Below are positions 11,508 through 34,717 of a stretch of 64,000 nucleotides of DNA, piece after piece. The stretch's first letter is position 1. Every line of letters begins with the position of its first letter. Origin of the DNA: Bacteroidia bacterium (lineage in GTDB: Bacteria > Bacteroidota > Bacteroidia > B-17B0 > Aurantibacillaceae); the NCBI GenBank assembly GCA_035439445.1, contig DAORKG010000020.1:375-64374 (forward strand). Direction: 5' to 3'. The position numbers and the translations under genes were made by a program. The notes beneath the pieces are model-generated. The model searched no databases and had not been told where the DNA came from. It saw only the letters and a list, made by a program, of their open reading frames with translations.

Positions 11508-11581
11508 GGTCCGGTAGTTCAGCTGGTTAGAATGCCGCCCTGTCACGGCGGAGGTCGCGGGTTCGAGTCCCGTCCGGACCG
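11508..11581 (+). tRNA. tRNA-Asp (anticodon GUC)
   Basis: Hand-folded cloverleaf. Acceptor GGTCCGG/CCGGACC plus discriminator G. Anticodon stem CCGCC/GGCGG with loop CTGTCAC. T-arm GCGGG-TTCGAGT-CCCGT. 74 nt, CCA not encoded. Confidence 0.95.
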
Positions 11582-11586
11582 CAAAA
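11568..11586. repeat. attL: 19-bp direct repeat TCCCGTCCGGACCGCAAAA (3' end of tRNA-Asp)
   Basis: Identical 19-mer recurs at 34699-34717. Confidence 0.8.
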
Positions 11587-11587
11587 A

Positions 11588-11625
11588 CCCTCTAGAAGCA
11601 TTGATTCTAGAGGGTTTTGCTTTTT
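11588..11625 (+). terminator. terminator after tRNA-Asp (island-supplied)
   Basis: CCCTCTAGAA-7 nt-TTCTAGAGGG, followed by TTTTGCTTTTT. Confidence 0.7.
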
Positions 11626-11833
11626 AGGTTAAACATAGGTAAAACATTGCTTTCTGTTCATAACTTTCACCTATTTAGTCCTCAAAACACCCAAAATAGT
11701 TCCCTAATACTTTATCCATACCTATGGTATGGATTATCTATAAGCAAACCACTTAAAAAGAGTTCTTTTTTACCCAAATTACATTGATTGGACGCAATCG
11801 CATCCGATTGATTATTAATACTTTAACTTAATT

Positions 11834-11841
11834 TACTTTTG
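11834..11841 (+). promoter_or_regulatory. -7 box TACTTTTG for the 11946-13560 operon
   Basis: Matches TAnnTTTG, ~105 nt upstream of the ATG at 11946. Confidence 0.35.
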
Positions 11842-11945
11842 TATTGTCAAACGATTTCTATTCGCGATATGAATGAAATTTGACCATTTTGAAGACTGAC
11901 TGCGCAGCAGTTGACAAAGTGCCAAATCAATTAAAAATCACAATT

Positions 11946-12695
11946 ATGGCAAGACAAAAAGGAATCATAAAGTTAAAAGGTAAAATCGGAGATTTATCCT
12001 TTTACAAAACACAGGATGGCCATTTAGCTCGTGAAAAAGGTGGTGTGGATGCCAGTCGTATAGCTAACGACCCGGCATTTATCAGAACCCGAGAAAACGG
12101 CGCTGAATTCGGTTCGTCTGCTAGCTCAGGAAAGCTAGTTAGAAATACTTTAAGACCATTGCTTATGACAGCTTCTGATAATCGTGTGACATCACGATTA
12201 ACGAAGTTGATGACTGATATTAAAAACCTTGACGCAACCTCTGTAAGAGGCAAAAGAACAGTTGGCGTTGCCATTACTCTTGCTCCTGCAAAGGCGTTGT
12301 TAAAAGGCTTTAATTTCAACGACAAAGCAATTTTAGGAAGTATTTTATTTAAACCTTTTGCAGTGACTACTGCAACTGGAGTAATTACCATTAATGGACT
12401 TATCCCTGCAAATGATATTGCGTTTCCTGCTGGAGCAACGCATATCAATATCAAAGGCGCTTGGGCTAAAGTGGATTTTGCAAACAATGTTTCTGATATT
12501 AAGTATTCAAACGTAGTGAATCTACCACTTAATGCTGTATCATCAAACGTTGTTTTAACTCCAACAGCTGCGGCAACTGGTGCAGGAACAAATTTGTTCA
12601 TGTTGCAAATTGAATTCTTACAAATGGTAAATACCGTTCAATATTCTCTTAAAAATGGCGCTTACAACGCATTAAGCGTTGTTGAGGTAGCCTAA
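11946..12695 (+). CDS. hypothetical protein (249 aa), conserved-looking N-terminus MARQKGIIKLKGKIGDLSFYKTQDGHLAREKGG
   Basis: Long ORF, no signal peptide, Ala/Thr/Asn-rich beta-type C-terminal half. ATG at 11946 preferred over TTG at 11880. Function unknown. Confidence 0.7.
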   Translation: MARQKGIIKLKGKIGDLSFYKTQDGHLAREKGGVDASRIANDPAFIRTRENGAEFGSSASSGKLVRNTLRPLLMTASDNRVTSRLTKLMTDIKNLDATSVRGKRTVGVAITLAPAKALLKGFNFNDKAILGSILFKPFAVTTATGVITINGLIPANDIAFPAGATHINIKGAWAKVDFANNVSDIKYSNVVNLPLNAVSSNVVLTPTAAATGAGTNLFMLQIEFLQMVNTVQYSLKNGAYNALSVVEVA

Positions 12696-12701
12696 CTCAA
12701 A

Positions 12702-12731
12702 AGCCCTAGGCATAAATGCCTGGGGCTTTTA
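12702..12731 (+). terminator. intra-operon hairpin (attenuator/terminator)
   Basis: AGCCCTAGGCA-TAAA-TGCCTGGGGCT (11 bp, one G-U), followed by only TTTT. Confidence 0.5.
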
Positions 12732-12766
12732 AACCAATAAAATATTAATCATTAAAAACATTCAAA

Positions 12767-12994
12767 ATGAATCTTATAGACAGATTAAAAGCACCAACTC
12801 CAAAGTTCTTTAAAATATTAAGAAATGTTGGATTAGGATTAGCTGCCGCAGGCGGCGTAATTGTGGCATCGCCAATAGCTATCCCTACAATTATTGTAAC
12901 CATAGGTGGTTATTTAATTGTAGCAGGAAGCGTAGCGACTGCTATTAGCCAAGCAGTAACAACTACTGAAGGCGAAAATGTAAAAAGTAACTGA
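12767..12994 (+). CDS. small membrane protein (75 aa, two hydrophobic helices)
   Basis: VGLGLAAAGGVIVASPIAIPTIIVTIGGYLIVAGSVATAI is Gly/Ala-rich TM sequence. Confidence 0.6.
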   Translation: MNLIDRLKAPTPKFFKILRNVGLGLAAAGGVIVASPIAIPTIIVTIGGYLIVAGSVATAISQAVTTTEGENVKSN

Positions 12995-13021
12995 ATAGTA
13001 ATTATTAAAATCATTATAAAA

Positions 13022-13360
13022 ATGACTGAAGAAAAAAATCAAACCGAAAAAACTCAAACTATTGTTGAGTTACAAGTTTTGCCATGTGCTAACGAAGTAG
13101 CAAAGGCAAAACAAAATGTTGAGGTATTGAATCATGAAAACCAAGATGATCCTCCATGCGGTAAAATTATTTTAACTGTTACTTGTAACGGTTCAAAATT
13201 AACCAAAGCAGATGCAGGTTATAATGCTGAACAAACTTATGAGATTTGGGCAGGTGCAAAACTAACAAAAGCTGATGCTGGAAAAATGCCTGACATTGAT
13301 GTTAGTGTGCATGAAAAATGTGGTTCAAAATTAACTAAAGCTGATTCAGGCAAAGCTTAA
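13022..13360 (+). CDS. hypothetical protein with three G[SA]KLTKAD[AS]G repeats
   Basis: GSKLTKADAG / GAKLTKADAG / GSKLTKADSG. The repeats are visible at DNA level at 13189-13218, 13251-13280 and 13322-13351. Confidence 0.6.
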   Translation: MTEEKNQTEKTQTIVELQVLPCANEVAKAKQNVEVLNHENQDDPPCGKIILTVTCNGSKLTKADAGYNAEQTYEIWAGAKLTKADAGKMPDIDVSVHEKCGSKLTKADSGKA

Positions 13361-13371
13361 AAAAATAGATT

Positions 13372-13560
13372 ATGTCAACACACAATAACATAGAAAGCGG
13401 AACAATCTTGGGTACTGTTTCCGGAACGGTTTTAACCGTAGCTGTGAACGTGGGTTCATCAGATATTTTAAAAACAGTTATTCTTGCTTCACTTGGTGCG
13501 GTGGTTAGTTTTAGCGTATCTTTGTTGTTGAAGTATTTAGTCAAAAGACTAAAAGAATAG
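13372..13560 (+). CDS. small membrane protein (62 aa)
   Basis: GTILGTVSGTVLTVAVNVG...VILASLGAVVSFSVSLLLKYL with a basic C-terminus. Holin-like architecture. Confidence 0.55.
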   Translation: MSTHNNIESGTILGTVSGTVLTVAVNVGSSDILKTVILASLGAVVSFSVSLLLKYLVKRLKE

Positions 13561-13581
13561 TTTTTTAATTGTTTAGGTTTA

Positions 13582-13617
13582 AGGTCGTCAGCTTGTAGTT
13601 GACGACCTTTTTTTTAT
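13582..13617 (+). terminator. operon terminator
   Basis: AGGTCGTCA-9 nt-TGACGACCT, followed by T8. Confidence 0.8.
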
Positions 13618-13714
13618 TTGGTTTTCATACAAAGCTACCAGTTATGTGCCAAAACTAACCAGTTACAAAGTGAGAGTTGCCACTTATTTGATAATTGGTA
13701 GTTTTGTGCCCCTT

Positions 13715-14101
13715 ATGCCAAAAGTCAAAACCCGAACGGCTGAAATCTATCTTGATAAGGATTTGATTTTGCATATAGTCATGTTAAATGACGTTGTTGT
13801 AGATTATGAAGATGCACTTGATAATTTTTTAGTTGTAAAACGATTCGTTAAAGAACGACATTGCTGTAAATTAATTGACATACGATGTAAATGTCATTTT
13901 GAAGCCAAAGCAAAGCAGTTTTTAGACACTAAAGATGTGCAAGGAAAAACATTATGTCGTGCACTATTAATCAATAGTAGCGTAAAGAAAATAACCTTAA
14001 ATTATTTCTTGAAATTCAACTCACAAAAAGTACCAACCAAATTTTTCACTGAATATAATGAGGCCATCAGTTGGCTGAAAAGTTACAAGCAAACTATATA
14101 G
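13715..14101 (+). CDS. hypothetical protein, STAS/SpoIIAA-like (DUF7793-like) fold suspected
   Basis: MPKVKTRTAEIYLDKDLILHIVMLND...AKAKQFL...ALLINSSVKKITLNYFLKF resembles SpoIIAA-like small domains. TAGTTTTG -7 box sits just upstream of the ATG at 13715; the ORF track starts at GTG 13646. Confidence 0.4.
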   Translation: MPKVKTRTAEIYLDKDLILHIVMLNDVVVDYEDALDNFLVVKRFVKERHCCKLIDIRCKCHFEAKAKQFLDTKDVQGKTLCRALLINSSVKKITLNYFLKFNSQKVPTKFFTEYNEAISWLKSYKQTI

Positions 14102-14524
14102 TTACTTTTTTAAATATTTATAAAACAAAGCTTTGCGCAATTGCATTAAATTAGAAAGTTGCTGTTGCAGATTAGTTTGATGCAACTCAATTTGAGCTAA
14201 AGCTTTTTGAACATCATAAAATGAGCGATTGCCAGAATTAACTGAATTTAAAACCTCATCTAAAACATCAATAACATCCCCTAAGCGAACAAACTCAATC
14301 ACTGAGCCTTTGAGATAAGGACGCAATAAACGAAGCTCCCAAATGCCTTGCAGCATGAAATAATAAAAATCCCTTTCATTTTTATCATCTGCCAGGAAAA
14401 CAAAAGAATTGCAGACATAATGCCTAAATGGCTTGCCTGAGTTGAGCCCTTTATTTAAAATAAAGAAATGTGGTTGATTGTAGATTTTACCTGATTTGTG
14501 GGTTTTGATTTTTGATTTAAGCAT
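14102..14524 (-). CDS. solitary single-TRD HsdS-like protein (140 aa)
   Basis: NSGKP...NSFVFLADDKNERDFYYFMLQG...LRPYLKGSVIEFVRLGDVIDV, then coiled coil LAQIELHQTNLQQQLSNLMQLRKALFYKYL. Pattern resembles half of a type I R-M specificity subunit. No hsdM or hsdR nearby. Confidence 0.4.
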   Translation of the reverse strand: MLKSKIKTHKSGKIYNQPHFFILNKGLNSGKPFRHYVCNSFVFLADDKNERDFYYFMLQGIWELRLLRPYLKGSVIEFVRLGDVIDVLDEVLNSVNSGNRSFYDVQKALAQIELHQTNLQQQLSNLMQLRKALFYKYLKK

Positions 14525-14898: not shown

Positions 14899-15759
14899 CT
14901 AATTACTCCAATTCAAAATGTTATCTTGAATACTAATATGATGTGCTTCAATATTTCCAATTTGTCGAAAATCAAATTTCCCTATTTCATTTTTATAGAC
15001 CTGAAATTCGTCACATAATGCATTCGTCAGTTCGATATTATCTGGTGTAATAAATGTACTAGATATAGCCCAGTTTACTCCAATTTGTTTTGAGGGAACG
15101 CTTGGATAACATATAGCGTGGGCTTTACCTTTGGCATGCAACAGAGCTAAATTACAATATGCTGTTGTAATAATATAAGTCTTCAAATCTCTTTTAGCAG
15201 GTAGTCTAAATTTATTAGCCAAGTATCTGAAAAAAGTATGATTTGCCTCTTTTAAATCTTGCTCTTGATCTTTTACTAAGTCATCATATACAGCACCATA
15301 ATATTTATCATATTCTGAAATGCGACTATCCATATCAGGAAATGTGACTATTATTGAAGACATTTGGGACTTAATCATCCATCTACCGATTGTTACCCTG
15401 AACACATCACCTACATTTTTAGTTTCAATCCAATTTTCAATTAATTCGAAATAAGAGATAGGGCGATTTTCAGAGCAATAAAAAACATTTTGACCTGGTC
15501 TATTACAGCGCGCAAAATAATTTATTGCATCCTTTGGAGGTAAGGATATTTGACTAATTTTTTCGAAAAAATCAATATCTACATGGGTTCGAGTTCTGAA
15601 AACAGGCATGTTTACTTTCTCTTCAAAAAGTATAACTGGAAAATTTATTAATTTACTATAAGCTAAAATTGCTTTTTCGTAACAGTATTCATCATTGGGA
15701 TTAAGAGCTTCTAATGAATCAATAATTTCATTTACATTTTTAACTAGCATAAAAAGCAT
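14899..15759 (-). CDS. RES-domain protein (toxin-like, NAD+-targeting family)
   Basis: ARCNRPGQNVFYCSENRPISYFEL (Arg, Tyr, Glu) and AICYPSVPSKQIGVNWAI (Ser) match the R-E-S signature spacing. 286 aa. Confidence 0.55.
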   Translation of the reverse strand: MLFMLVKNVNEIIDSLEALNPNDEYCYEKAILAYSKLINFPVILFEEKVNMPVFRTRTHVDIDFFEKISQISLPPKDAINYFARCNRPGQNVFYCSENRPISYFELIENWIETKNVGDVFRVTIGRWMIKSQMSSIIVTFPDMDSRISEYDKYYGAVYDDLVKDQEQDLKEANHTFFRYLANKFRLPAKRDLKTYIITTAYCNLALLHAKGKAHAICYPSVPSKQIGVNWAISSTFITPDNIELTNALCDEFQVYKNEIGKFDFRQIGNIEAHHISIQDNILNWSN

Positions 15760-15778: not shown

Positions 15779-15780
15779 GG

Positions 15781-16535
15781 TAAAAAGCGCCTGCGGCGTG
15801 CGGTGGGATGAGGTTGCAAATAGTGAATGAAGTGAAAGTGCATCCTGAAAGGTGCGCTGAACGAAATGAATGGTTTGCAATCCGTTGTGCGGCGAGCCAC
15901 CTGCGAGTGGAGCGAGGGTGTGCAGCACGGGAGCACGAAGAGGTACGATGAGGGCGGGTGCAAACTATGTTGCCAGTGTGGCGAAATAAATAAAGCATCT
16001 GCTTTGATTTATGCCACACGATAGACAACACGAAGCAAAACTAAATGCAAGCAAAGCAATTTATTGCTTACCGCTTAGCGGCTTGCATAAGTTTTGCTGA
16101 AGCCCGAGCGACCCAGCAGGCGAGCTGAAAAGTTGGCAGCCGGTGGACTGAAAGCTGCTGAAATGAATGAAGTGAAATGGCACCCAGTGAAAGTAGTGAA
16201 ACGGATGTAACGGGTGAATAATGAAACGAAATGAATAAAGTTGCTTGAAGGACAAAGAAGGCTGCCGTGACGAAAGTACGTGCAAATTGCAAAATGTGTG
16301 ACAAACCCAAAGCCCTAAAGGGCAAAATAGCTTATGCGAAATGCCTTGAAAAGATAAAGCAGAGCATGGGCTATTTTGGTTTGGCGCATCTTTTTGCTTT
16401 GCACCTGCTGAGGAACGCCACTTTACCTGTTCGAGAAATGCGTTAGCGATTGTAGCGAATATCCTTTTTATCCTATAGGGTAAAAAGATAGTAGCGGAAA
16501 GCGCGACCGAAGGGAACGCTCAATAAAATCTATTA
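15781..16535. other. G+C/purine-rich ORF-free block: candidate structured ncRNA or REP-like repeat cluster
   Basis: Hand count ~349/740 G+C for 15781-16520, versus 19/60 in the adjacent coding line. Only mutually overlapping 62-95 aa - strand ORFs. Many local helices and an internal duplication of 14-nt and 12-nt exact motifs. Confidence 0.5.
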
Positions 16536-17060
16536 TTATAAAATTATATTTGATTTTCTAAAATAATTGTAATCATGTAACTTCTCATCTGATGTATCTG
16601 CAAATCCTAAAAATTCTATTAATCTATTCTTTTCATTACCAAATAAAAACAGTTCCATATCTATCTTGTTTTCTACAGATGTAACCCAGCCGAAAAAGGA
16701 TGCGGAATTTAAAATATCTAGTAATTTCCTTCTAACAGGGGAATCATATTTTTTAATGTTTAAATAATCAACATCAGTTTCAGTAGGGTATTTTTTTAAA
16801 TAAATATCAGAAAGAGATGAGATTCTATATTCGTTAGACATATTTTCTCTTTCATATTTACTAACAGCGTATAATACCGAGAAGCTTTTAATTGTCTTCC
16901 AAATTTGAATTTTTTCGTTAGAAGCTCTCTCTGAAGATGAAGTTGCATCTGCATTAAAACCGAAAAACATATCAGGTTCATATCCTGTTGTTAATGCTCT
17001 TCTAAAGAAATAAGTATCGGCTTTAACAAAATACTCTTTTTTATTTTCAATAATTGACAT
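16536..17060 (-). CDS. hypothetical cytoplasmic protein (174 aa)
   Basis: No signal peptide. Lies 7 nt downstream of the last T9SS cargo gene on the same strand. No recognisable motif. Confidence 0.55.
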   Translation of the reverse strand: MSIIENKKEYFVKADTYFFRRALTTGYEPDMFFGFNADATSSSERASNEKIQIWKTIKSFSVLYAVSKYERENMSNEYRISSLSDIYLKKYPTETDVDYLNIKKYDSPVRRKLLDILNSASFFGWVTSVENKIDMELFLFGNEKNRLIEFLGFADTSDEKLHDYNYFRKSNIIL

Positions 17061-17067
17061 TTAAAAC

Positions 17068-18255
17068 TTACTCTTTAATAAACTTAATGGTTTTTATTTG
17101 TTCTTTATGACGAATAGATAAAAAATACATGCCATTAGATAGATTCAATAAATTAACCTGATTATTAAAGTGACTTTCAAATACTATTTGTCCTAAATAG
17201 TTTTTAATTTCAATAGTTGCGTTTTGAAATTGATTTTGTTTATCAATAATATTTAAGATAGAATTTGTTGGATTAGGATAAATTAGTAAACTATTATCTA
17301 TTTCGGTTTCTTTTAGACCAACGAAATCAATATTTTTCCAAGTTTCCTTAATGCGAGCTTGATTTTCATTTAATCCTGTTGTTATATATAATGCTCCATT
17401 CATAGAAAAAAACATACTACCCTTTCTTCCTAAACTTGGTATACCAGAATAATTTGTCAGACTACTATCTAAAGGATTAAATACTACTAGTGTATTTGTT
17501 ATTATCCCAGTCGAATCTAAGCCTCCATATAAACATCCTTTCTTATTACATACAGATGTACCAATATAATCTTGTGCAGGCAAGGTAATATTTGAAATTT
17601 TTCTCCAACTATCAGACAAAAAATTGTATTGATAAACATAATGATTATAACTTGAATTACTATTCATGCCATAACATACATATCCAGTACTGTCAATTGA
17701 AAAAAAAGAACCACGCCAAATTGGTATTGGCAAATTGTTTTTTTGCGACCAAGTAGTTGTTATAAAATCATATTCCCAAACTTCATTTAGAGTTGTGTTA
17801 TCTGCTTTTCTGCCACCAATAATATATGCCTTATTTTTAATTATAAAGTTACCCATGCCTTGTCTTGCAGAACCTGGAAAATTTGGTAACACTGACCAAG
17901 TATTTAAAATTGGATCATATTCAAGAAAATCGTTAAAGCATGTATTGTCACATTTAAGACCTCCGAATAAATAACCCTTATTGTTATAAGAAAAAGCTGT
18001 AGCATATTGTCTTTCTTTACCAACAGGAAGATTTGCCATTGATGACCATGTTTCTGAAGTACAATCAAATATGTAGCCATTACCTGTACACTGCCAGCCA
18101 ACCTCTAAGCCACTAAAACAATATGCTTTGTTATTAATTAAAAAAGATGTACCGTCGTCTCTCTCTGTTCCAGGAAAATCAGTTAATTGAAGCCACGACT
18201 GAGAATGAAGTTTACTGAACAAGCATAAAAGAGTCAAAAAAATAATTATTCTCAT
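17068..18255 (-). CDS. Kelch-repeat protein with T9SS C-terminal sorting domain
   Basis: Signal peptide MRIIIFLTLLCLFSKLHSQ. Kelch-like NNKAYCFSGL / NNKGYLFGGL / KNKAYIIGGR. CTD LLIYPNPTNSILNI...NGMYFLSI. Confidence 0.8.
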   Translation of the reverse strand: MRIIIFLTLLCLFSKLHSQSWLQLTDFPGTERDDGTSFLINNKAYCFSGLEVGWQCTGNGYIFDCTSETWSSMANLPVGKERQYATAFSYNNKGYLFGGLKCDNTCFNDFLEYDPILNTWSVLPNFPGSARQGMGNFIIKNKAYIIGGRKADNTTLNEVWEYDFITTTWSQKNNLPIPIWRGSFFSIDSTGYVCYGMNSNSSYNHYVYQYNFLSDSWRKISNITLPAQDYIGTSVCNKKGCLYGGLDSTGIITNTLVVFNPLDSSLTNYSGIPSLGRKGSMFFSMNGALYITTGLNENQARIKETWKNIDFVGLKETEIDNSLLIYPNPTNSILNIIDKQNQFQNATIEIKNYLGQIVFESHFNNQVNLLNLSNGMYFLSIRHKEQIKTIKFIKE

Positions 18256-18256
18256 A

Positions 18257-19786: not shown

Positions 19787-19787
19787 A

Positions 19788-20570
19788 TTACCTGATACTA
19801 ACAATCTTAAAGTTAACGCTTGGTTTATTACTTTGTTTTAAACTTAATAGATAAAGCCCATTAGCTAAATGTTGTGTATTAAACTGTTTTGTACCAAAAG
19901 ATTGGGTTAATTCCATATTGTCAATTATTCTTCCAGAAGATAATTCAAGTGTACTGCAACCTCCTGATAAATTAACTATTTGAGCAGAGCCATCACAACA
20001 ACTTGAGCATGTTGGTTGGGTTACCTGGATGGAATATGTTATAGGTGTTGAACATACAGTGGATGAAGATTGACCTGCTAATAAATGAATATTAGAGACA
20101 CTGGAATAGGTATTGGAATATACATACAAGGTATCAAAGCAACCTGATTGATTATCTCCAAGGAAATTTAAGTTTAAATATCCAAAAGTGGTATCTCCTG
20201 GCGCATTTAACCTATAATATCCCATATATCTTTGCCCTGTATTTAGTTGCCATGCAGGAATCCAGAAACAACCAAAAACCGATGAAGGTAACGAACATTG
20301 ATTTCCATAATTTGAAAAGGGTTGACCACTCAATTTTGGCAAATCTCCTAATTTAACATTTGCCTGTTTACTTGACGCACTGTATATAACATTATCTATG
20401 CCTACATAACGTGAAATTTTTATATCAATATTTCCATCAGCGTTAACATCAATAATAGCAGTATCTTTTGCTACTAGTACCTTATCATTAATAGCAACCG
20501 TAACAGTTTGACTATACGAAGAAATAGAAGTAAATAGTAATGCAATTTTTAATAACGCTTTATATTTCAT
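19788..20570 (-). CDS. secreted protein with truncated/chimeric T9SS CTD
   Basis: Signal peptide MKYKALLKIALLFTSISSYSQ. The last ~45 aa are near-identical to the CTD tail of the 18257 gene, but the PNP-type start of the CTD is missing. Confidence 0.65.
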   Translation of the reverse strand: MKYKALLKIALLFTSISSYSQTVTVAINDKVLVAKDTAIIDVNADGNIDIKISRYVGIDNVIYSASSKQANVKLGDLPKLSGQPFSNYGNQCSLPSSVFGCFWIPAWQLNTGQRYMGYYRLNAPGDTTFGYLNLNFLGDNQSGCFDTLYVYSNTYSSVSNIHLLAGQSSSTVCSTPITYSIQVTQPTCSSCCDGSAQIVNLSGGCSTLELSSGRIIDNMELTQSFGTKQFNTQHLANGLYLLSLKQSNKPSVNFKIVSIR

Positions 20571-20576
20571 GAGAAT

Positions 20577-22055: not shown

Positions 22056-22058
22056 TAA

Positions 22059-22892: not shown

Positions 22893-22908
22893 TTAAATAT
22901 AGATACAA

Positions 22909-22936
22909 AAAAGCCCCTACTAAAAAGAGGCTTTTT
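22909..22936 (-). terminator. weak hairpin between paralogous T9SS genes
   Basis: AGCCCCT..AGAGGCT (one mismatch), followed on the - strand by TTTTTTG. Confidence 0.35.
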
Positions 22937-22938
22937 GA

Positions 22939-24132: not shown

Positions 24133-24162
24133 GTTCTATACTTAAATTATTTTAACTCTTAC

Positions 24163-27100: not shown

Positions 27101-30100
27101 GAATTTGCTGGTAACCATTGATATGTGCCATTCCCTGTACCTGTTAAAGTTGTAAAACTATTTGGACAAATAGTTTGATTGATTCCTGCATTGGCATTTG
27201 GTGCACCTGTTTGTGTAACGTTAACATTATGAGTAATTACAATAGGGTTTGTAACAAGTGGTCCACTCAATGTAGCTGTAACAACATAGGACCCTGTATT
27301 AAAAACATGTGTGATTGATGCTCCTGTTCCATTTGGGCTACCATCACCAAAATTCCATGTTACCGTATAATTTTTATAACAGTTATTAATATCAAACTGA
27401 TAAGTAGGACATCCTGTAATCGTATTTACAAACGCAAAGTCGGGAGCAACAGGTAAGGGAACTTTAGAATCAACATTATTTACTAATGTATATTGGTTCT
27501 TCATATCAATAGGACTGCCAATAGCTCCAGCTGGTGTAATTAAATTAACACTTGCTTGTATAGCAATGTTTCCTGTAGCAGCATCCGGATTTGGTATTTC
27601 ATTTAAAAAATCTGTTTTTATCCCATCAATAAAATATAAATGGTTGTTTGGACCAATTTGCATAAATGATGGTTTTGTATTATAAGGTAATAAAATACCT
27701 GTATTCGAATTTGTTGCAACATCATGTTTCACTATAAAATCATTGATTACAATTCCACCTACGTACCCTAGACCTGTTGCATAAACATATTGACCATTTG
27801 GGCTAAAACTACAGCCTTGATAAGAAGACACGCCATTATAATGAGGTGTTATTAATTCATTTGATATGACACCTGTTGAGCTATTAAAATCATATAAAGC
27901 TAACTGACTACCAGATAAAGCAATTTTATTGCCAAAAGGCGAAGCTTTTAATTGATTAACATAACCTATATTACTGAAAGAGCCACCACATGATGGATAG
28001 GCATCTGGAGCATTACTACTAAAATTAGCATTAGTAATTCCGTTTTGTGTTACTAAATAAACATAAAATCTTTTATTTTGCACGCTATAGTATATAACCC
28101 AATAATCTTTCCCGTTACAATGCGGTATAGCAGTTATAGATTCCCAAAGTATTTCATTTGAAACACATGCTGGTAAAGGCAATAAACCTTGATTAATTAT
28201 TGTACTAGATGCCAAATCTATCAATGCGTATCCTCCTTGAAAGTTCATATTACTTGATAATTGACTAAGATTTGTTGGTTTGGGAGTATTGAAAATGTAA
28301 TATTGATTAGGGAAACCGGGTGCAGGAAAAGTGATACTATTAGAAAAACTAATATTGAAATTTTGTCCTAAATCATTTAACAATGAAGAAGATTTATACG
28401 CACTTGGTAAAGGATTGGTATTAATTTTATTAGGACTACCACTGCTTACTTTCCAAACATCCACACCATTTGCGTAATATAAATCATTTCCAGTATTATC
28501 TGAAATAGAAACACATAGAGAATTGATACCTGTAATAGATGTTTGAGGTGTAAATGTATTATCATTTTTTACGGGGATCCCTGAACTAAAATCTAATGAT
28601 ACATAATCTCCAAAATGCCAGTTTGCTTGTGAGATTTTTTCAGGGTCTAAGGTACAATCTACAACTAAAAATGAAATATTTGATGTTTGGGATGCTCCTG
28701 CCGCATCTGTTACTGTTAAACTAATATTATATGTACCAGGTGCGCCAAAAGTTACAGACGGAGGACTAGCTGTGTTACAATTTGTACTATGATACGTTGG
28801 CAATGAACTACCTGTTATATTCCATTGCCAATCAACAGCAGCATTACCGCTTAAACAAGTTAATGTTGCAAAATTTACTGGCTGACCAACACAACCATAT
28901 CCTTGCGAGGCACTAATATCAGAATTTAAAACACTTGCTGCTACACAACCAATATCACCTATTAAACCAGTAAAAATCAAATTACTGTTTGTCCATAAAT
29001 TAGACCATTTAATGTTTAAACAAGCCCACATCCTTAATTTTTGGTCATTTGTAAATGTATTCCTGCAAGGATCATCTTCATAAGCCATATAATCATTTGG
29101 TAAATCTTTTATACCACAAAGAGGAACGTATGATTCTGAACATGAATTTGGTCTGTTATTAGGATTACATTGCCCAGTAAAGCCAGACGACATAGGTGCA
29201 ATATCACATATCCCATCGCCATTTAAATCACAAGGGTCATTAGAACTTCCCGCGGCATTAGTTCCTGCACAAACTCCTGTTGGATTTTGTCCTACATTCG
29301 TGTTAGGAAAAAATGGATGCTGTAGAGATAAGAAATGACCAACCTCATGAACCAGTACTTTTCCATCTTGATTGCTAGGCCATAAATTATAAGTATTGTT
29401 TGTTAATGTATTTTCTCCAAAACATCCGGCAGACATAATTATACCTTCAGGTGTTCCAATTTGGTTACCAAAAGCATCATAAAAATAAACACCTGCCATT
29501 GGAGAGTTATTTACATATAATTGGTCAACTATCCAGATATTTAAATATTTATCTTTTGGGAACGTGTTAACACTAGCATTATTTGTTAAATTAACAAGCG
29601 CGGTTGCACTACCTTGTGTATTTATATATACCTGAATTGCCGGATCATTAATTGTTGACACATCATATCTCATGACTCCATATTCAGTATTGTTCCCTGG
29701 ATCTTGAGACCAATTTAAATTACTTGGATATGGATTTTTAGCCAAACAAAACTGAATTTTTGTATCGACACTAAATTGGCCTTGATAATTAACTTGACTT
29801 GCTGCAAAAGCTACATTTAATGCATTTATTTGAGATTGAATTTGTGCATAAGATAAGTTTGTTCCACTGCCATATGCCATGCCTGGTGTTTTAATTACAT
29901 GAACAACAACTGGAATGTTATATATAGCACTATTAGTAATTAAATTATTGTTATTATTAAGATTATTTGTTGCTAAGTATTGTTTTACTTGTTTGTTAAA
30001 AGCTAATACTAAACTATCATAATTCGGGTTAGCACTTCTATAATTTTGTTCAAGTAAATGGTTACCACAAGTTGGCGTAACTGTTTGAGCAAATAGGTTA

Positions 30101-30147
30101 CATGAAACAAAAATAAATATCCACGAAGTAATTAGAATGTTTTTCAT
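24163..30147 (-). CDS. 1994-aa secreted metzincin (M43-like) metalloprotease with PKD domains, beta-helix repeats and T9SS CTD
   Basis: Signal peptide MKNILITSWIFIFVSCNLFAQ (ATG at 30147). HEVGHFLSLQHPF zinc motif. PKD signatures (WNFGDGSP...). Long N/T/S-rich parallel beta-helix-type repeats. CTD IFPNPGVNLFHV...DGIYFVKF. Confidence 0.85.
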   Translation of the reverse strand: MKNILITSWIFIFVSCNLFAQTVTPTCGNHLLEQNYRSANPNYDSLVLAFNKQVKQYLATNNLNNNNNLITNSAIYNIPVVVHVIKTPGMAYGSGTNLSYAQIQSQINALNVAFAASQVNYQGQFSVDTKIQFCLAKNPYPSNLNWSQDPGNNTEYGVMRYDVSTINDPAIQVYINTQGSATALVNLTNNASVNTFPKDKYLNIWIVDQLYVNNSPMAGVYFYDAFGNQIGTPEGIIMSAGCFGENTLTNNTYNLWPSNQDGKVLVHEVGHFLSLQHPFFPNTNVGQNPTGVCAGTNAAGSSNDPCDLNGDGICDIAPMSSGFTGQCNPNNRPNSCSESYVPLCGIKDLPNDYMAYEDDPCRNTFTNDQKLRMWACLNIKWSNLWTNSNLIFTGLIGDIGCVAASVLNSDISASQGYGCVGQPVNFATLTCLSGNAAVDWQWNITGSSLPTYHSTNCNTASPPSVTFGAPGTYNISLTVTDAAGASQTSNISFLVVDCTLDPEKISQANWHFGDYVSLDFSSGIPVKNDNTFTPQTSITGINSLCVSISDNTGNDLYYANGVDVWKVSSGSPNKINTNPLPSAYKSSSLLNDLGQNFNISFSNSITFPAPGFPNQYYIFNTPKPTNLSQLSSNMNFQGGYALIDLASSTIINQGLLPLPACVSNEILWESITAIPHCNGKDYWVIYYSVQNKRFYVYLVTQNGITNANFSSNAPDAYPSCGGSFSNIGYVNQLKASPFGNKIALSGSQLALYDFNSSTGVISNELITPHYNGVSSYQGCSFSPNGQYVYATGLGYVGGIVINDFIVKHDVATNSNTGILLPYNTKPSFMQIGPNNHLYFIDGIKTDFLNEIPNPDAATGNIAIQASVNLITPAGAIGSPIDMKNQYTLVNNVDSKVPLPVAPDFAFVNTITGCPTYQFDINNCYKNYTVTWNFGDGSPNGTGASITHVFNTGSYVVTATLSGPLVTNPIVITHNVNVTQTGAPNANAGINQTICPNSFTTLTGTGNGTYQWLPANSGLSCYTCPSPVASPLVTTVYTLEVTNSCGTQSSSVIVTLSPPCTYCSNCNPIGTSGSITSNAVNSVFCVNNSVTIVGTKLFVNADFKMAAGVKIIVPNGAALRIINSHLYSCGDMWQGIEVQNGGQLTITNSLIEDAKVAVDVTGNIQASGNVFNLINSTFNRNDVSVFINSYSQAVPNYPFSITNCVFTCRDIPFGIQTFPSASTIGAAATNPGAPFTNNVIDNGTYLQTGTLGAFLKAPAPANSKPSAAIRLKAVGVTQNPQSATPTYFEFVLGGASNTNIIDNQRIGVDLIGSNFTSYNTIYQNTATFGKSNTAGGIGINATAPNETYNNRLRVTSTNNSASKGNKFVDCSRAINTFNYFEHQITLNDIRSSQSTATTGPNVKGKYGVKSITNRYKTYNVSNNTIYNIENGVILDATFGLLNIGSITSSSSQYAGAVNVDNNIISPQVGGSAITTNYVSNAIALSDIISSPYNIIPVSSSATSVIQTANNTITDVYRGIAYVNWEKSTNKISSNTIKLVVDPSSATPQQFGIAVSGAQANVNVSQVNSNNVTGFGITANSKVYGIVDNISDRINVNCNTTTNTYHGIAFSGNCTNTLFNNNVMSNHKYGFALLNNGIIGQQGTATSPQDNRWTGTWTGNFKTGILSGSDATYSKMYIRNNNSASPFNPDGSSQSFTLPFLATLYSLNNGNLVPTTSNPLYIGCPVVLNNGGGNPPAFVINQLEQIALDVINYQNNAQQTKTINKNQVYRLLKADPTLMANSSILQTFYANSQNTNRKVLADIETNIVTGDLTTANNLNASIASSDIVELNYKSFYNLAIKQAEGTITTNDSLALATLAYGCPFTDGVMVYQARVMLNVMYDSYNVYPDNCPEQSNARLAKSHQNDNAMDNEDSFDAVIFPNPGVNLFHVATFGVTDGDIEVIVNDIAGKTIYEGKHSIANALTEFVFDAKDGIYFVKFYNINSNQTIIKKLVIQK

Positions 30148-30270
30148 AACAGTCAATTTAAGTTTAAACGAATATATAACTATTAATTTAAAAAGCAAAT
30201 TTTTGTTAAAGGAAGTAATTGAATGAAGTTAAATTAATAATGTATGAGTAATATAACATTTAAAACTTGA

Positions 30271-30316
30271 GAGTGCAAAGTGCAAACCCATATATAAGGG
30301 TTTGCACTTTGCACTC
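30271..30316. terminator. perfect 19-bp inverted repeat (terminator/operator)
   Basis: GAGTGCAAAGTGCAAACCC-ATATATAA-GGGTTTGCACTTTGCACTC, between the ATPase gene 3' end and the protease gene 5' end. Confidence 0.6.
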
Positions 30317-30324: not shown

Positions 30325-31497
30325 TTAAGTTGAATTATTTGATTTTAAAGGGTTTAAGTAGTACACAATTTCTTTATTGATAGCACGAGTGCAAAGGGTG
30401 TGGTTTACCTCATTTTGCTCTATGACAATAGCCGTATCGGTAATTTGTTTTAGGCGGCTAACGATAGTGCGCTTGCTGCAATCCAATTCTTCAGTAAGTG
30501 CCTCTATTAGTTCTTTGCGCGACATTTCCGGTTGTAATAAATGAGCTAATAATTCGGTTGTTTCAGAAAGTGCCGCTTTTTGATTTTTCTTGTCTAAAAT
30601 AGCTTGAGTTGAAAATGGGTCTGCCATTACCAATCCTTTTTCTTCGTTTGAATATTGAACATGAAATGGGTCGTGTTTTTTTGAGCTACGGCATTTTAGA
30701 AAATTGACTTTAATTAAATCAGTGTTATGATTTTGAGCGTCTTTCTCAAAACCGATTTGTAAAACGGTTGAAGCTTTGTTTAGAATTTCAGTACCTAAAT
30801 GCCCGCGAGCTTTATCCGTATTACCCGGATTCTCATGTATTAAACACAAAAAAGTAACATCGTACCGGTTAATAGATTGGTTCATCATATCTATTAATTT
30901 CATACTGTCTTTAGTGTCATTGAAGTTGAAAACACAATCGGTTATTACATCCAGTACAATAAACAAGTGCATTGGGAACTGTTTGCGGATATGCTCGAGA
31001 TAAATATTGAGCATATCAAATCGTTCTTCTCGTGCAAATTCAAGTAAAGAAATGTAGTCGAAGCCATAAGGATTATCCTGAATTGTATAACCCGCTTTTA
31101 GTTGAATTTGCTGAAGAGAATAAGGCAACTGGTCTGACAAATTTCTTTCCGTATCTACATAACAAACAGCATAACGACTTAGTAGGTTAGTTTTAAAATC
31201 TAATAAATCTCTATTACTATCGGGAGTTTTTAATAAAGCGGCGCAAATGGTTTCAGCAAGGCGTGACTTATGCACGCCTGCTTTACCTTGGATAACATTG
31301 ATTGTTTTAGGAAAGAAAACCGGGTTTTCTTTTTGCCACAAAATAGGTTGTGAGAAGTTAATCGGTTTGCTTTTGTTCTCTTTTATTTTCTTTTGAGATT
31401 CGAGCAAACGAGTGAGTTTTAATTGAGGACTTTCCAGGTTCACCGTAGGTGACTTAGAAAGTCCATTTTGGGTTGATGGTGCAGGAATATCAAACAT
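30325..31497 (-). CDS. RepA/DnaB-like P-loop ATPase (AAA_25-like) with C-terminal wHTH
   Basis: Walker A VIQGKAGVHKSRLAE. Walker B HLFIVLDVITD. LCLIHENPG. C-terminus SKRTIVSRLKQI. Typical replication/mobilisation protein of Bacteroidetes integrative elements. Confidence 0.6.
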   Translation of the reverse strand: MFDIPAPSTQNGLSKSPTVNLESPQLKLTRLLESQKKIKENKSKPINFSQPILWQKENPVFFPKTINVIQGKAGVHKSRLAETICAALLKTPDSNRDLLDFKTNLLSRYAVCYVDTERNLSDQLPYSLQQIQLKAGYTIQDNPYGFDYISLLEFAREERFDMLNIYLEHIRKQFPMHLFIVLDVITDCVFNFNDTKDSMKLIDMMNQSINRYDVTFLCLIHENPGNTDKARGHLGTEILNKASTVLQIGFEKDAQNHNTDLIKVNFLKCRSSKKHDPFHVQYSNEEKGLVMADPFSTQAILDKKNQKAALSETTELLAHLLQPEMSRKELIEALTEELDCSKRTIVSRLKQITDTAIVIEQNEVNHTLCTRAINKEIVYYLNPLKSNNST

Positions 31498-31508: not shown

Positions 31509-31895
31509 TTATTGGTAATACGATAGTGCCATGAAGTACAATTTAATTTCGCCGTTTTCGAAACGAACTGTTGCAGACCAATCTTTTGGTTTACGGTTTT
31601 GTAACTCCGTTTCTTGTTGGATGCAACTTTCTAAACTCATGATCATCATTTTGTAGTTGGCCTCATCAAGTCTGATAAACAACTCAGACATATAAGCGTA
31701 ACGCAATTTATCGAGTTGCAGTTTTTCAAACAGTTTATTTAATTGGTTTTTATCGCTGTTACTATCGCTAAATAATTTCATGTAATAATTTACATTGCTC
31801 TCTAATGTTTTAGCATCACGGGCAAGGATTGCTGAAACTTGTTGAAGCAATTCAGGCCAAGTAAGGTCGTGTAAAGTCTCGTTATATTTTTCCAT
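31509..31895 (-). CDS. hypothetical protein (128 aa), island backbone
   Basis: Compact ORF in the same operon as the ATPase. No motif recognised. Confidence 0.5.
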   Translation of the reverse strand: MEKYNETLHDLTWPELLQQVSAILARDAKTLESNVNYYMKLFSDSNSDKNQLNKLFEKLQLDKLRYAYMSELFIRLDEANYKMMIMSLESCIQQETELQNRKPKDWSATVRFENGEIKLYFMALSYYQ

Positions 31896-31907: not shown

Positions 31908-32186
31908 TTACTTTTTAAATGCTTTCACATAATGCTTGTTTAATAATTCTTCAACGTCACCCATTTTGTAATAGATTTTGTTACCAACCTGAGAGAAAGA
32001 AATTTTGCCTTCATCTCTCCAGGTTTGTGCGGTGCGTTTTGAGATTTTCATCAAGAATAAAAATTCTTGATTGTCCACAAAAACCTCTTGTGGTTTTTTG
32101 TTTTGGTTGTCAATTTTTGTTTTGATTTCTTCGATTGAGCCTGCCAATGTATTGAACTGCTCTTTTGATAAGATTACTGCTTCCAT
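31908..32186 (-). CDS. excisionase-type helix-turn-helix DNA-binding protein
   Basis: FLFLMKISKRTAQTWRDEGKISFSQVGNKIYYKMGDVEELLNKH matches the HTH_17/Xis-like pattern. 92 aa. Confidence 0.65.
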   Translation of the reverse strand: MEAVILSKEQFNTLAGSIEEIKTKIDNQNKKPQEVFVDNQEFLFLMKISKRTAQTWRDEGKISFSQVGNKIYYKMGDVEELLNKHYVKAFKK

Positions 32187-32254
32187 AATTGTTTGTTTTT
32201 AAATGATTATGGGGCAAAAGTGTGCAGAGAAAAAAGGTGACTTGGTGACGGAAC

Positions 32255-32268
32255 AGTTCCCGGGAACT
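32255..32268. promoter_or_regulatory. perfect 14-bp palindrome AGTTCCCGGGAACT upstream of the Xis-like gene
   Basis: Seen directly. GC-rich palindrome in an AT-rich spacer, 69 nt upstream of the ATG at 32186. Confidence 0.4.
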
Positions 32269-32301
32269 ATTTTACATACAACATCGTGAAAATCAATGCA
32301 G

Positions 32302-33171
32302 CTATTCTAGTTTAAAACGAGAGTTCCCTTTAGGTCTTTTGTCAAAATTGGATGGTTTTAACATTGTGTAAACCGAATCAGCAGAAATTTGATTACCGTC
32401 CTTATCAATCACATTACTAGCAATAAACTCTGATATTTCTTTTAAGGGGTTGGCTATGGCTTGTTTTTCTTGAGATAGTTGAAAAAATACGTCAACAAAG
32501 TAATTGATATTACAATTAAGTTTTATGGGAGTGATAGCATTAGTTTTATTAGCAATAGAAACTGTTCCTTTTTTGAGGATGGATTTTTCTCTTAAAACTT
32601 CTTGTTTATTGAGTTTTTCAATCTCTAAAGAAATTTGTTCATCAAATGGAACGGAATGAGGGTTTAAAATTGCTGGGCGCTGTTGTTTGTATTCTGTTTC
32701 CACTTCACATAAATAAAATAATTTATCCTCTACTGTATCGTATTGCTTAAGTCTTTGCTTTACTTCCTTAATATCAAATGTATTTTTTTGAGAATTATTT
32801 TGGTGTTCGATAGCATCACGCATGACTTCAATTATCATTAAAGCTTTTTCAAATTTAACTACTTGTTCTTTTGTTGTAAATAATTCTCTATTTAGATCAA
32901 TCAGCTTTTCTAATTTATTGAGCCATACAATAGGCTCCTGCATTTTATCACACTGGTATTGAATGAATGGTTTAATTTTTGATTTTGGTATTGTAAATAG
33001 TTTGTGAAGCAAACATTTACAATACAGTTCTAAATAAAATTTACCGCCATTTAAAAAATTTGCAGGTTGCTTCTCGTCGAATATGCAAATAGCATATTCG
33101 TGCGCATCAAATTGGGTAATATCAACAATCGGATGCTCTATAAAAGGAGAACTAATAACAAACGTATACAT
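32302..33171 (-). CDS. hypothetical protein (289 aa), island backbone
   Basis: ORF between the integrase and the Xis-like gene. No motif recognised. Confidence 0.5.
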   Translation of the reverse strand: MYTFVISSPFIEHPIVDITQFDAHEYAICIFDEKQPANFLNGGKFYLELYCKCLLHKLFTIPKSKIKPFIQYQCDKMQEPIVWLNKLEKLIDLNRELFTTKEQVVKFEKALMIIEVMRDAIEHQNNSQKNTFDIKEVKQRLKQYDTVEDKLFYLCEVETEYKQQRPAILNPHSVPFDEQISLEIEKLNKQEVLREKSILKKGTVSIANKTNAITPIKLNCNINYFVDVFFQLSQEKQAIANPLKEISEFIASNVIDKDGNQISADSVYTMLKPSNFDKRPKGNSRFKLE

Positions 33172-33173
33172 AA

Positions 33174-33216
33174 CAAAAAAATAAAAACCGTTTTACTAAA
33201 TTAAAGCAAAACGGTT
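33174..33216 (-). terminator. integrase terminator
   Basis: AACCGTTTT-13 nt-AAAACGGTT, followed on the - strand by TTTTTATTTTTTT. Confidence 0.6.
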
Positions 33217-33275
33217 AAATAAAATGTTAATGTTTATAAATATAGCATTAAATTGCTATAATTTATAGCAATTTA

Positions 33276-34523
33276 TTAGGCTAATTTTAGGTTATATTGC
33301 GGTGCAGGCTCAGAGAATACATCCATTGCCTTATCAAGTTCCTCATTAACTATTTTTGCATAGCCTTGTGTAGTTTTAATATTTCCATGACCCATTAATT
33401 TGGAAACATATTCTATACGCATACCTTTTTTTAAGGCTCTTGTTGCCCAAGTATGTCGAGAAGTATGAAAAGTTAAATGTTTTTTTATTTCAGCTTTTTT
33501 AGCAATTACTTTTAATGCACTATTACACATTGAATCTTGTGAAGCTATTGCTTTAGTTAAATAATCCTCATCTGAATAATCTAAATCATTATTTAAAAAT
33601 GGGAAAATAAAGTTATTTGGATTAACATTTTCACTATGATAAATCATTAATATGTCGATAGCTTTTTGAGGTAATTTAATTGAAACCGGAACACCTTTAC
33701 ATTTTTTAGTGTAAAGAAAAATGCGCTCCCCATCGAAATTAATCCATTTTAATTTACATACATCCGAAATTCTCAAGCCTCCTGCATATGCAGACAAAAT
33801 GTAAGCGTTACGAGTATCGAAAATTCTTTTATGGCAATTAGTTAAGTTTAGATTTTCAATAGCTTCAATTTCTGACTCTACCAGGAAATTTTTCTCAACA
33901 TTTTCCCATTTATATTTGTACCATAAAAATGGATTTTCATCATATTTAATCACTCTGTCTTTGACTGCCTCATTTATTATTCTACGAATGATTTTCATAT
34001 TTGCATAAACTGTATTTGTGCAGTTATTTCTTTTATTTCTCATGTGATGCTCGTATTCTTTCAGCCAACGAGTATTAAGGGTTTCAAAGTTTAAATCTTT
34101 ACCTTGCATGTATTCCTTAACTTTACTTATAACACCTTCTGCCTTATCATAAGTTGAGCCTGCAACTTTACCTTTTACGTCCATAAAATAAAGTTTACAA
34201 TAGTCAAAAAAACTAGGCGATTCTTTACCCATTATATTTTCTTTGATAGAAGCTGCTGAAATATCTTTAGAATTATTTTCCAATTCTAAAGCTTGATTTT
34301 CTGCTTCTGCTAATTTGTTGGTAATGGTATTATTAATACGTTGGGAATTTTTCATACCCTTTTTTACACGTTTATTTTCCTCATCCCAATTATCTTTATG
34401 AACTGTAATACCCAAAGCAATATACTTTGATTGACGATTTTTGATAATCCGGAGGTACAAAGGAGCCTCCTCTTTATTGTTCATTTTCTCCTTTCTGAAG
34501 ACAATTTTTACCGATGTTGCCAT
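33276..34523 (-). CDS. tyrosine-type site-specific integrase
   Basis: N-terminal arm-binding-type MATSVKIVFRKEK...APLYLRII. Catalytic GGLRISDV...HTSRHTWATRAL...LMGHGNIKTTQGYAKI (R..H-x-x-R..H..Y). Confidence 0.92.
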   Translation of the reverse strand: MATSVKIVFRKEKMNNKEEAPLYLRIIKNRQSKYIALGITVHKDNWDEENKRVKKGMKNSQRINNTITNKLAEAENQALELENNSKDISAASIKENIMGKESPSFFDYCKLYFMDVKGKVAGSTYDKAEGVISKVKEYMQGKDLNFETLNTRWLKEYEHHMRNKRNNCTNTVYANMKIIRRIINEAVKDRVIKYDENPFLWYKYKWENVEKNFLVESEIEAIENLNLTNCHKRIFDTRNAYILSAYAGGLRISDVCKLKWINFDGERIFLYTKKCKGVPVSIKLPQKAIDILMIYHSENVNPNNFIFPFLNNDLDYSDEDYLTKAIASQDSMCNSALKVIAKKAEIKKHLTFHTSRHTWATRALKKGMRIEYVSKLMGHGNIKTTQGYAKIVNEELDKAMDVFSEPAPQYNLKLA

Positions 34524-34536
34524 ATTTTTTTTCTTT

Positions 34537-34544
34537 CAAAATTA
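34537..34544 (-). promoter_or_regulatory. -7 box TAATTTTG for the integrase
   Basis: Reverse complement of CAAAATTA, 14 nt upstream of the ATG at 34523. Confidence 0.35.
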
Positions 34545-34698
34545 CTACCGAAAGCAAAATTAAGGGTAAAACTTGGGGTTAAACATATCCACATTTCCTT
34601 TGCTTTTGGCTGCATTTTGTTGCTTTAAGAAATTGATTAAAATATTGATTTTTAAGCAATTAAGTACATGAGGCATGAAATTTTGGTTTGCCGCTTAT

Positions 34699-34717
34699 TC
34701 CCGTCCGGACCGCAAAA
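34699..34717. repeat. attR: displaced 3' fragment of tRNA-Asp (19-bp direct repeat)
   Basis: TCCCGTCCGGACCGCAAAA is identical to 11568-11586. No upstream tRNA body. Confidence 0.8.

Follow-up and report, generated by a model that had tools for sequence, protein, structure and literature searches.

A 23-kb integrative element in a tRNA-Asp gene, very probably a member of a Bacteroidota-wide family with a large structured RNA in its backbone

Among the mobile elements of Bacteroidota, the integrative and mobilisable elements (IMEs) NBU1, NBU2, Tn6031 and MTnPi4 carry a MobP relaxase and a defined origin of transfer (oriT) within about 10–11 kb (PMC5704250). Here we analysed a 23-kb island in the tRNA-Asp gene of an Aurantibacillaceae bacterium, contained in a 64,000-nt window (assembly GCA_035439445.1, contig DAORKG010000020.1, positions 375 to 64,374, forward strand). 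The island resembles the NBU1/NBU2 type in its Bacteroidota host, its tyrosine integrase, its insertion at a tRNA 3' end, its short core repeat, the lack of a type IV secretion system (T4SS) of its own, and the small genes, including an Xis-like one, between the integrase and a replication-type gene (PMC5704250). It differs from these IMEs in that no relaxase was detected, the replication-type gene encodes a RepA-fold ATPase, and a module of an RNA and a 249-aa protein as well as a large exchangeable cargo slot are added. With P4-like elements, phage-inducible chromosomal islands (PICIs) and virion encapsidated integrative mobile elements (VEIMEs) it shares a core of integrase, AlpA/helix-turn-helix (HTH_17) protein and helicase, tRNA or conserved attachment (att) sites and frequent defence cargo (PMC9618062). 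Unlike these satellites, it has no packaging, capsid-size or helper-sensing genes, is nearly absent from viral collections, and is larger and more variable.

We conclude that the island is very probably a genuine, 23,131-bp site-specific integrative element of a Bacteroidota-wide family, with a life cycle of excision and replication that we infer from its gene content. This conclusion draws on the border repeats, the empty sites in congeners, the family architecture, the structure of a ~650-nt RNA, the fold of the ATPase and a relative in circular or tandem form. A tRNA island with an integrase is of an ordinary kind; the interest lies in its family, which has an RNA in its backbone and lacks known transfer genes.

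The target tRNA and the two ends of the island comprise the following features.
11508..11582, + strand: intact tRNA-Asp (GTC), the integration target (ARAGORN; Rfam tRNA, 68.8 bits)
11568..11586, + strand: core of the left attachment site (attL), first copy of the 19-bp direct repeat, made up of 15 nt from the tRNA 3' end and the AAAA that follows
11584..11622, + strand: tRNA terminator supplied by the island (hairpin 11584–11618, 17-nt arms, then a T-run)
11627..11645, + strand: candidate arm-type integrase sites at the left end, tandem GGTTAAAC / GGTAAAAC, 11 bp apart (motif scan)
34565..34584, + strand: candidate arm-type sites on the integrase side, tandem GGTAAAAC / GGTTAAAC (motif scan)
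34699..34717, + strand: core of the right attachment site (attR), the other copy of the 19-mer, which lacks a tRNA body
34711..34746, + strand: native tRNA-Asp terminator, moved 23 kb off its tRNA by the insertion (hairpin search; relatives)

The original prediction rested on an exact 19-bp repeat, TCCCGTCCGGACCGCAAAA, forming the tRNA 3' end at 11568 and recurring at 34699. Both window copies (11568–11586 and 34699–34717) were recovered, and the spacing of their starts gives the island size of 23,131 bp. Because the tRNA was called at 11508–11582, 15 nt of the repeat belong to the tRNA 3' end and 4 nt lie beyond it. The whole assembly (3.57 Mb, 82 contigs) holds these two copies only, both at island borders, so that the concern of a 19-mer frequent elsewhere in the genome did not materialise; within the 64-kb window, no further match appeared with up to 2 mismatches allowed (chance expectation, 0). 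The motif GGTWAAAC has nine matches in the window, four of which form two tandem pairs just inside the island ends (11627/11638 and 34565/34577). These pairs match the expectation for sites bound by the arm domain of the integrase and are candidate arm-type sites.

To search for an unoccupied site, the left flank (10584–11586) was joined to the right flank (34718–35700), and this query was compared with 40 relatives. The joined flanks were matched in one uninterrupted piece, with 77–80% identity, in three congeneric species (G007, G021 and G009). These empty tRNA-Asp sites refute the reading of the island as an ancient fixed region. The hairpins behind the two repeat copies differ (11584–11618 compared with 34711–34746). 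A hairpin, ATCCTGATAAGAAATTATCAGGATTTTTCG, stands directly 3' of tRNA-Asp in G007, G021, G009, G006 and G008, and in the window it is placed behind the second repeat. Because this hairpin lies directly behind tRNA-Asp at the unoccupied sites of relatives, the right-end hairpin is the native tRNA terminator, displaced by the insertion, and the left-end hairpin arrived with the element. A hairpin of the same type as the left-end one is found behind tRNA-Asp in a sister island (G003). These results are in agreement with the earlier expectations that the second repeat copy lacks a tRNA body and keeps a tRNA-type terminator, that the terminator of the intact tRNA is supplied by the element, and that an empty site would be found in related genomes.

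The tRNA-Asp locus showed further peculiarities among the congeners. In G002 (C21; L040 629–3730), a ~3-kb insert lies behind tRNA-Asp, with a second, partial tRNA 3' end at its border; an island-type terminator follows each tRNA 3'-end copy, the insert carries a gene with a C-terminal domain of the type IX secretion system (T9SS), and ~22 kb more separate the insert from the usual right flank. The tRNA-Asp gene looks like a recurrent insertion hotspot. In several congeners, a ~200-bp segment comprising tRNA-Asp, its upstream region and the terminator is inverted between the same two flanking genes; inversions or terminator oddities at tRNA-Asp were listed for G006, G008, G003, G018, G022, G001 and G010, and G022 has an island-type terminator behind the tRNA without an island. 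At the otherwise empty sites of L006 (G009) and L010 (G013), extra tRNA T-arm-like fragments (GGTTCGAGTCCG...) are present past the native terminator, which may be scars of earlier integrations. On the right, the flank of the window island (34785–35408 onward) is, by the annotation of the source contig, a housekeeping block with a SatD-family gene, rplM, rpsI, rpsB, tsf and pyrH.

The right end of the island is occupied by a module, which was predicted as integrase, 289-aa protein, HTH protein, 128-aa protein and RepA-like ATPase with the integrase at the tRNA-distal end. The open reading frames (ORFs) and Pfam matches upheld both this order and the position of the integrase.
33276..34523, − strand: tyrosine integrase, 415 aa, with Arm-DNA-bind_5, Phage_int_SAM_5 and catalytic domains (Pfam, PHROGs)
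32302..33171, − strand: conserved 289-aa protein, the most divergent backbone gene (27–96% identity among family members)
31908..32186, − strand: 92-aa HTH_17 protein, candidate excisionase (recombination directionality factor) (Pfam HTH_17, E 7e-8)
31509..31895, − strand: conserved 128-aa protein
30325..31497, − strand: 390-aa RepA/RecA-fold ATPase with a C-terminal winged-helix domain (AlphaFold2 model, pLDDT 80.5)
30271..30316, no strand: 46-nt near-perfect palindrome of GTGCAAA repeats around a CCCTTATATAAGGG-like centre, 9 nt past the ATPase stop codon

The integrase matched Phage_integrase with E 7.5e-22 and the PHROG 1 integrase family with E 7e-43, and its translation shows the GLRISD, HTSRHT, GHGN and QGY motifs (R, HxxR, H and Y) of an intact catalytic domain. 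The proposal of an Xis-like protein is consistent with the HTH_17 match of the 92-aa protein and with its weak matches to PHROG excisionase families (E ~3e-4). Profiles of the 289-aa and 128-aa families gave no match in Pfam or the PDB and no match to a relaxase family. The 390-aa protein likewise had no family match in Pfam, NCBIfam, PHROGs or PADLOC. In its predicted structure, the best PDB fold match was the RSF1010 RepA helicase (1nlf_A; E 1e-10, TMt 0.68), followed by Rad51, RadA, RecA and KaiC, which supports the suggested RepA-like ATPase at the level of a modelled fold. The likeness to RSF1010 RepA (1nlf, 1g8y) and to the RecA/Rad51/KaiC fold covers residues ~50–290 of the model. The protein differs from RSF1010 RepA in having only 12% identity to it, no Pfam match, the P-loop GKAGVHKS and an extra C-terminal winged helix. 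The P-loop is an atypical Walker A motif, invariant among 27 homologues, and an hhhhD motif is also present. Distant relatives with ~50% identity (in Psychroserpens, Chryseobacterium, Porphyromonas, Ravibacter and Telluribacter) either form a fusion with a DnaG-type primase or precede a Zn-ribbon/DUF6371 protein. This fusion or pairing is as found in primase-helicase proteins, and the linkage supports a role in replication. Most close family members keep the palindrome sequence immediately behind the ATPase gene, and it could be an origin or a protein-binding site.

Comparison with other genomes indicated that the island is a member of a Bacteroidota-wide family in which a backbone of ~7.5 kb is fixed and the cargo can be exchanged. 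The backbone consists of the integrase, 289-aa, HTH_17, 128-aa and ATPase genes with the palindrome, the RNA, a DUF6943 gene and the operon of the 249-aa protein. ATPase relatives with 72–94% identity occur in ~13 of 52 congeneric species, sometimes two per genome, and a large protein collection contained 1189 ATPase relatives, all unnamed. A scan of one genome per species yielded 80 loci, ~30 of which keep the order integrase, 289-aa, HTH, 128-aa, ATPase.

Several sister islands show how the backbone and the cargo vary. Genome G066 has a ~24-kb island in tRNA-Cys, bounded by GAGGTCCCGAGCG repeats, and G053 has another in tRNA-Cys; both keep the right module (in G053 no integrase was found in it) and the left module with the cargo replaced, and these islands share the orientation that puts the integrase end away from the tRNA. 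This position is not universal, because a Solitalea longa relative has tRNA-Met beside the integrase. Compared with the window, the right module of G066 is 73% (integrase), 66% (289-aa), 78% (HTH), 96% (128-aa) and 93% (ATPase) identical, and the left module is 96% (249-aa), 89% (75-aa), 74% (112-aa) and 89% (DUF6943) identical. This mosaic, with 66% for the 289-aa protein and 96% for the 128- and 249-aa proteins, suggests recombination between family members. A different tRNA target accompanies the integrase of G066 (73%). In G003, tRNA-Asp itself is occupied by a sister island, with an almost identical left end, an integrase of 87% and a 289-aa protein of 96% identity. The tRNA-Asp core was also found upstream of the integrase in a Sphingobacteriales and a Bacteroidales metagenome-assembled genome (MAG), and a Sphingobacteriaceae MAG (L078) has the complete family architecture including the RNA. 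The three elements with both ends placed measure from ~23 to 30.7 kb, and the G053 element, in which no integrase was found, spans ~14 kb.

Large structured bacterial RNAs such as ROOL, GOLLD, OLE and HEARO are ~600–800 nt long, with many covarying helices, and some are found on mobile elements near tRNA genes. Between the left module and the cargo, the island contains a G+C-rich, ORF-poor stretch with an RNA of similar length.
15779..16427, + strand: ~650-nt structured RNA with a GGUAAA/UUUACC closing helix (covariation), antisense to the module from integrase to ATPase

Full-length copies with 69–81% identity were found in at least 13 congeneric genomes, and their RNAalifold consensus contains 140 pairs. 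The cells able to pair amounted to 96.5%, compared with 35–42% in slid controls and 90.5% in shuffled controls. Pairs changed on both sides numbered 46, compared with 4–11 in slid controls and 18.6 ± 2.6 in shuffled controls, of which 0 of 500 reached 46. The fold is therefore strongly supported by covariation, and invariant G-U pairs assign the RNA to the + strand. A coding role for this G+C-rich block was rejected on account of its short overlapping ORFs, inconsistent tblastn matches and strong covariation. No Rfam 15 family matched the stretch, and the isolated segment 15779–16420 gave nothing even at E ≤10; it differs from ROOL, GOLLD, OLE and HEARO also in host phylum and gene neighbourhood. 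A profile search recovered the RNA in equal position and orientation in L078 and in a Solitalea agri contig described below; it is part of the conserved core of the family.

The left, tRNA-proximal module shares this conservation.
11946..12695, + strand: conserved 249-aa protein
12767..13560, + strand: three small conserved genes (75, 112 and 62 aa)
14102..14524, − strand: DUF6943 protein, a conserved backbone gene (Pfam E 2e-36)

The 249-, 75-, 112- and 62-aa genes form one + strand operon, and the same order is present in the metagenome contigs L163 and L164. The 249-aa protein belongs to a family of 5175 clusters (2727 representatives at 50% identity), nearly all of ~249 aa. Its AlphaFold2 model (pLDDT 77) shows a disordered basic N-terminal arm, an Arg-rich helical domain and a beta-sandwich; no meaningful fold match was obtained in the PDB or BFVD (best E 7e-3, TM <0.25), and profile searches of the PDB and Pfam were empty. 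From its conserved arginines, we would guess that this protein binds nucleic acid. The 75-aa product is a two-helix membrane protein, and the 62-aa product is also a membrane protein. The 112-aa protein (13022–13360), which is conserved in the left module of the family, contains the decapeptide GSKLTKADxG three times; the underlying 33-nt repeats vary at synonymous positions. The DUF6943 gene is present in G066, G053, L078, L164 and L108. A half-HsdS reading of this 140-aa gene was rejected because it matches DUF6943 over its full length.

A junction like that expected of an excised element was found in a relative. Contig JAMWYS010000030.1 of Solitalea agri MAHUQ-68 is 30,723 nt long, has 71 identical bases at its two ends and contains no tRNA. 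Its genes run in the order integrase, 284-aa, HTH_17, 120-aa, ATPase, cargo, RNA, and on to DUF5675 and a 267-aa gene, the latter a homologue of the 249-aa protein. Between the 267-aa and the integrase genes lie arm repeats, a hairpin, a tRNA-3'-like core and further arm repeats; the arm motif of the window, too, occurs on both sides of this junction. By its sequence, this junction has the layout of the phage-type attachment site (attP) predicted from the attL and attR of the window. In a second S. agri assembly, contigs break at the attP-like junction. The pattern fits a circle or a tandem array, either of which requires integrase-mediated recombination.

Taken together, these data suggest the following scheme. 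A tyrosine integrase would have recombined an attP with the tRNA-Asp 3' end, the attP having carried a 19-bp copy of the tRNA 3' end, a terminator of its own and flanking arm-type sites. The outcome would be the intact tRNA with the island terminator at attL and a 19-bp stub with the native terminator at attR. The integrase and the Xis-like HTH_17 protein, perhaps together with the 289- and 128-aa proteins, would excise a circle, and the RepA-fold ATPase with its winged-helix tail may act at the adjoining palindrome to replicate or maintain that circle. The left module, with the 249-aa protein, the small membrane proteins, DUF6943 and the RNA, appears to be the best candidate for moving or protecting the element. 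In this scheme, we infer the activity of the window copy itself, what the ATPase, the palindrome and the RNA do, and any route of transfer.

Some of our observations weigh against an active element of this kind. The G+C content of the island (0.27–0.39 in 1-kb bins) is not distinct from that of its flanks, and the identity between sister islands is not clearly above that of flanking core genes, so that recent transfer is not demonstrated. No integrase was found in G053 or beside the backbone in L076 and L078. The window island contains no primase, and ATPase activity is uncertain because a histidine replaces the second glycine of the P-loop. Finally, a tandem array, and not a free circle, could lie behind the S. 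agri signature.

The route by which such an element might spread was considered in the light of its gene content. For the scanned island ORFs, Pfam, NCBIfam, PHROGs and PADLOC revealed no relaxase, coupling protein, relaxosome accessory, T4SS, capsid or terminase family. This agrees with the earlier statement that conjugation and capsid genes are absent. A prophage was rejected because no capsid, terminase, portal or tail match was obtained in Pfam or PHROGs, and an integrative and conjugative element was rejected because no T4SS or coupling-protein gene is present among the island ORFs. Of the designation "mobilisable or satellite-type" in the original prediction, the part concerning missing transfer and capsid genes held, and the island may be of either type. 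An IME without a relaxase, whose excised circle is nicked at an oriT in cis, such as the palindrome, by the relaxase of a co-resident conjugative element and moved through the T4SS of the latter, is possible, though we regard it as doubtful. NBU1, NBU2, Tn6031 and MTnPi4 also enter tRNA 3' ends with tyrosine integrases and several small excision proteins, and IMEs with an oriT only are documented (PMC5704250); moreover, a conserved palindrome adjoins the ATPase gene, and the element at L159 adjoins another element with an integrase and RteC. However, neither the relaxase nor the coupling and accessory proteins of mobilisation were matched in the scanned island ORFs, the 289-aa family lacks a conserved cluster of histidines such as HUH relaxases carry, and all canonical Bacteroidetes IMEs in the review encode a MobP relaxase (PMC5704250). 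In PLSDB, plasmids contain only distant ATPase relatives (25–31% identity); similarly distant relatives were noted on Bacteroidales plasmid records.

A phage satellite would instead be excised upon induction by a helper phage, replicated by its helicase and packaged as DNA, possibly concatemers as in marine VEIMEs, into helper capsids, with defence cargo interfering with phages; we consider this unlikely. A satellite-type module of integrase, HTH_17 protein and RepA-fold ATPase is present, with a primase only in distant relatives, and P4-like elements, PICIs and VEIMEs have in common a core of integrase, AlpA/HTH_17-type protein and helicase, with or without primase. VEIMEs also lack capsid genes and carry RepA-like and RecA-like genes (PMC9618062), defence systems dominate the cargo of the relatives of our island, and distant ATPase relatives (24–29% identity) occur on 4–25-kb "Bacteriophage sp." contigs from faecal virome data. 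These INPHARED records (MT836458, MT836227, MT836043 and others) are unannotated and of human faecal origin. Yet INPHARED phages gave no match to the 249-aa protein or the RNA, and among the 2.9 million contigs of IMG/VR the ATPase had a relative on 3 and the 249-aa protein on 0, although absence from a collection is no proof. Phage genes are absent from the examined parts of the single close IMG/VR match, the island lacks terS as well as capsid-remodelling and phage-repressor-like genes, and ~23–30.7 kb (~14 kb in G053) is a wide range and large for a satellite. An enrichment of the family in viral contigs was looked for in IMG/VR and not found. Still less probable, in our view, is an immobilised, domesticated island that integrated once and is kept only for its T9SS cargo while its backbone decays. 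In its favour, the composition matches the host, and some relatives have lost the adjacent integrase. Against this stand the exact 19-bp repeats, the full length of all backbone ORFs with conserved catalytic motifs, the strong constraint on the backbone proteins and RNA across many genomes, and the empty site in congeners.

The integrative element in the window thus belongs to a family that appears to be undescribed in the libraries and literature searched. Besides the integrase and the HTH protein, its conserved genes belong to no described family, and one of its fixed components is a very large structured RNA, of which bacteria have few. Nothing relevant was found in the literature on DUF6943, DUF7793, DUF6371 or large RNAs of Bacteroidota mobile elements. 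The family ranges over freshwater and wastewater MAGs and Solitalea and, more distantly, Aquimarina, Chryseobacterium, Porphyromonas and Mucilaginibacter, and it moves defence systems and T9SS-secreted proteases between genomes. Tentatively, and with more doubt than conviction, we suggest an undescribed class of integrative-replicative elements of Bacteroidota, in which a ribonucleoprotein-like core of the RNA, the 249-aa protein and the small membrane proteins would replace a relaxase or capsid for spread, maintenance or the exploitation of a helper, and the slot on the helicase side would be a general cargo site. Because the RNA now has a defined context of att and arm sites, replication module and cargo slots, and because S. 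agri MAHUQ-68 is a cultured host with perhaps a circular copy, the function of the RNA and the transfer route are open to experiment.

The remaining features of the island lie outside the backbone.
13646..14101, + strand: DUF7793 protein, accessory, missing in the islands of G066 and G053
14899..15759, − strand: 286-aa protein with a weak RES-domain match that misses the Pfam cut-off (E 0.004), accessory cargo of a second slot, absent from sister islands
16421..16512, + strand: Flavo-1 RNA motif (RF01705; 58 bits against a gathering score of 42)
16536..30198, − strand: cargo of a 174-aa protein and seven T9SS-sorted proteins (Pfam)

The T9SS cargo comprises a Kelch propeller, a 2011-aa protein with M43 peptidase and PKD domains and five further proteins. 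All seven have the C-terminal sorting domain (Por_Secre_tail); in the 260-aa cargo protein the match to the sorting domain (E 0.0019) is below the Pfam cut-off. Nothing corresponding to this stretch is present in the islands of G066 and G053. A defence role of the unknown ORFs of the window island was rejected, as PADLOC gave no defence match for any island ORF. The cargo of the relatives is mostly anti-phage defence. In G066, a type I restriction-modification (R-M) system is accompanied by a PLD nuclease, SoFic and a PDC-M62 pair resembling Septu. An integrated member on metagenome contigs L162 and L164 has a 13-bp repeat and arm repeats of a different kind; its cargo is R-M/SNF2/PLD. The cargo of L078 is of the VWA/PP2C/kinase type, and that of L076, another MAG, is again T9SS-sorted, including a 1609-aa S8 peptidase.

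At the gathering threshold, the Rfam scan passed only tRNA and Flavo-1. The Flavo-1 motif overlaps the last 7 nt of the large RNA; it was rejected as a part of the backbone because it has no match in the G066 or G053 islands. A second copy is present at G000:C68:2252-2350, and Flavo-1-like segments are dispersed on their own, sometimes in tandem, in many congeneric genomes.

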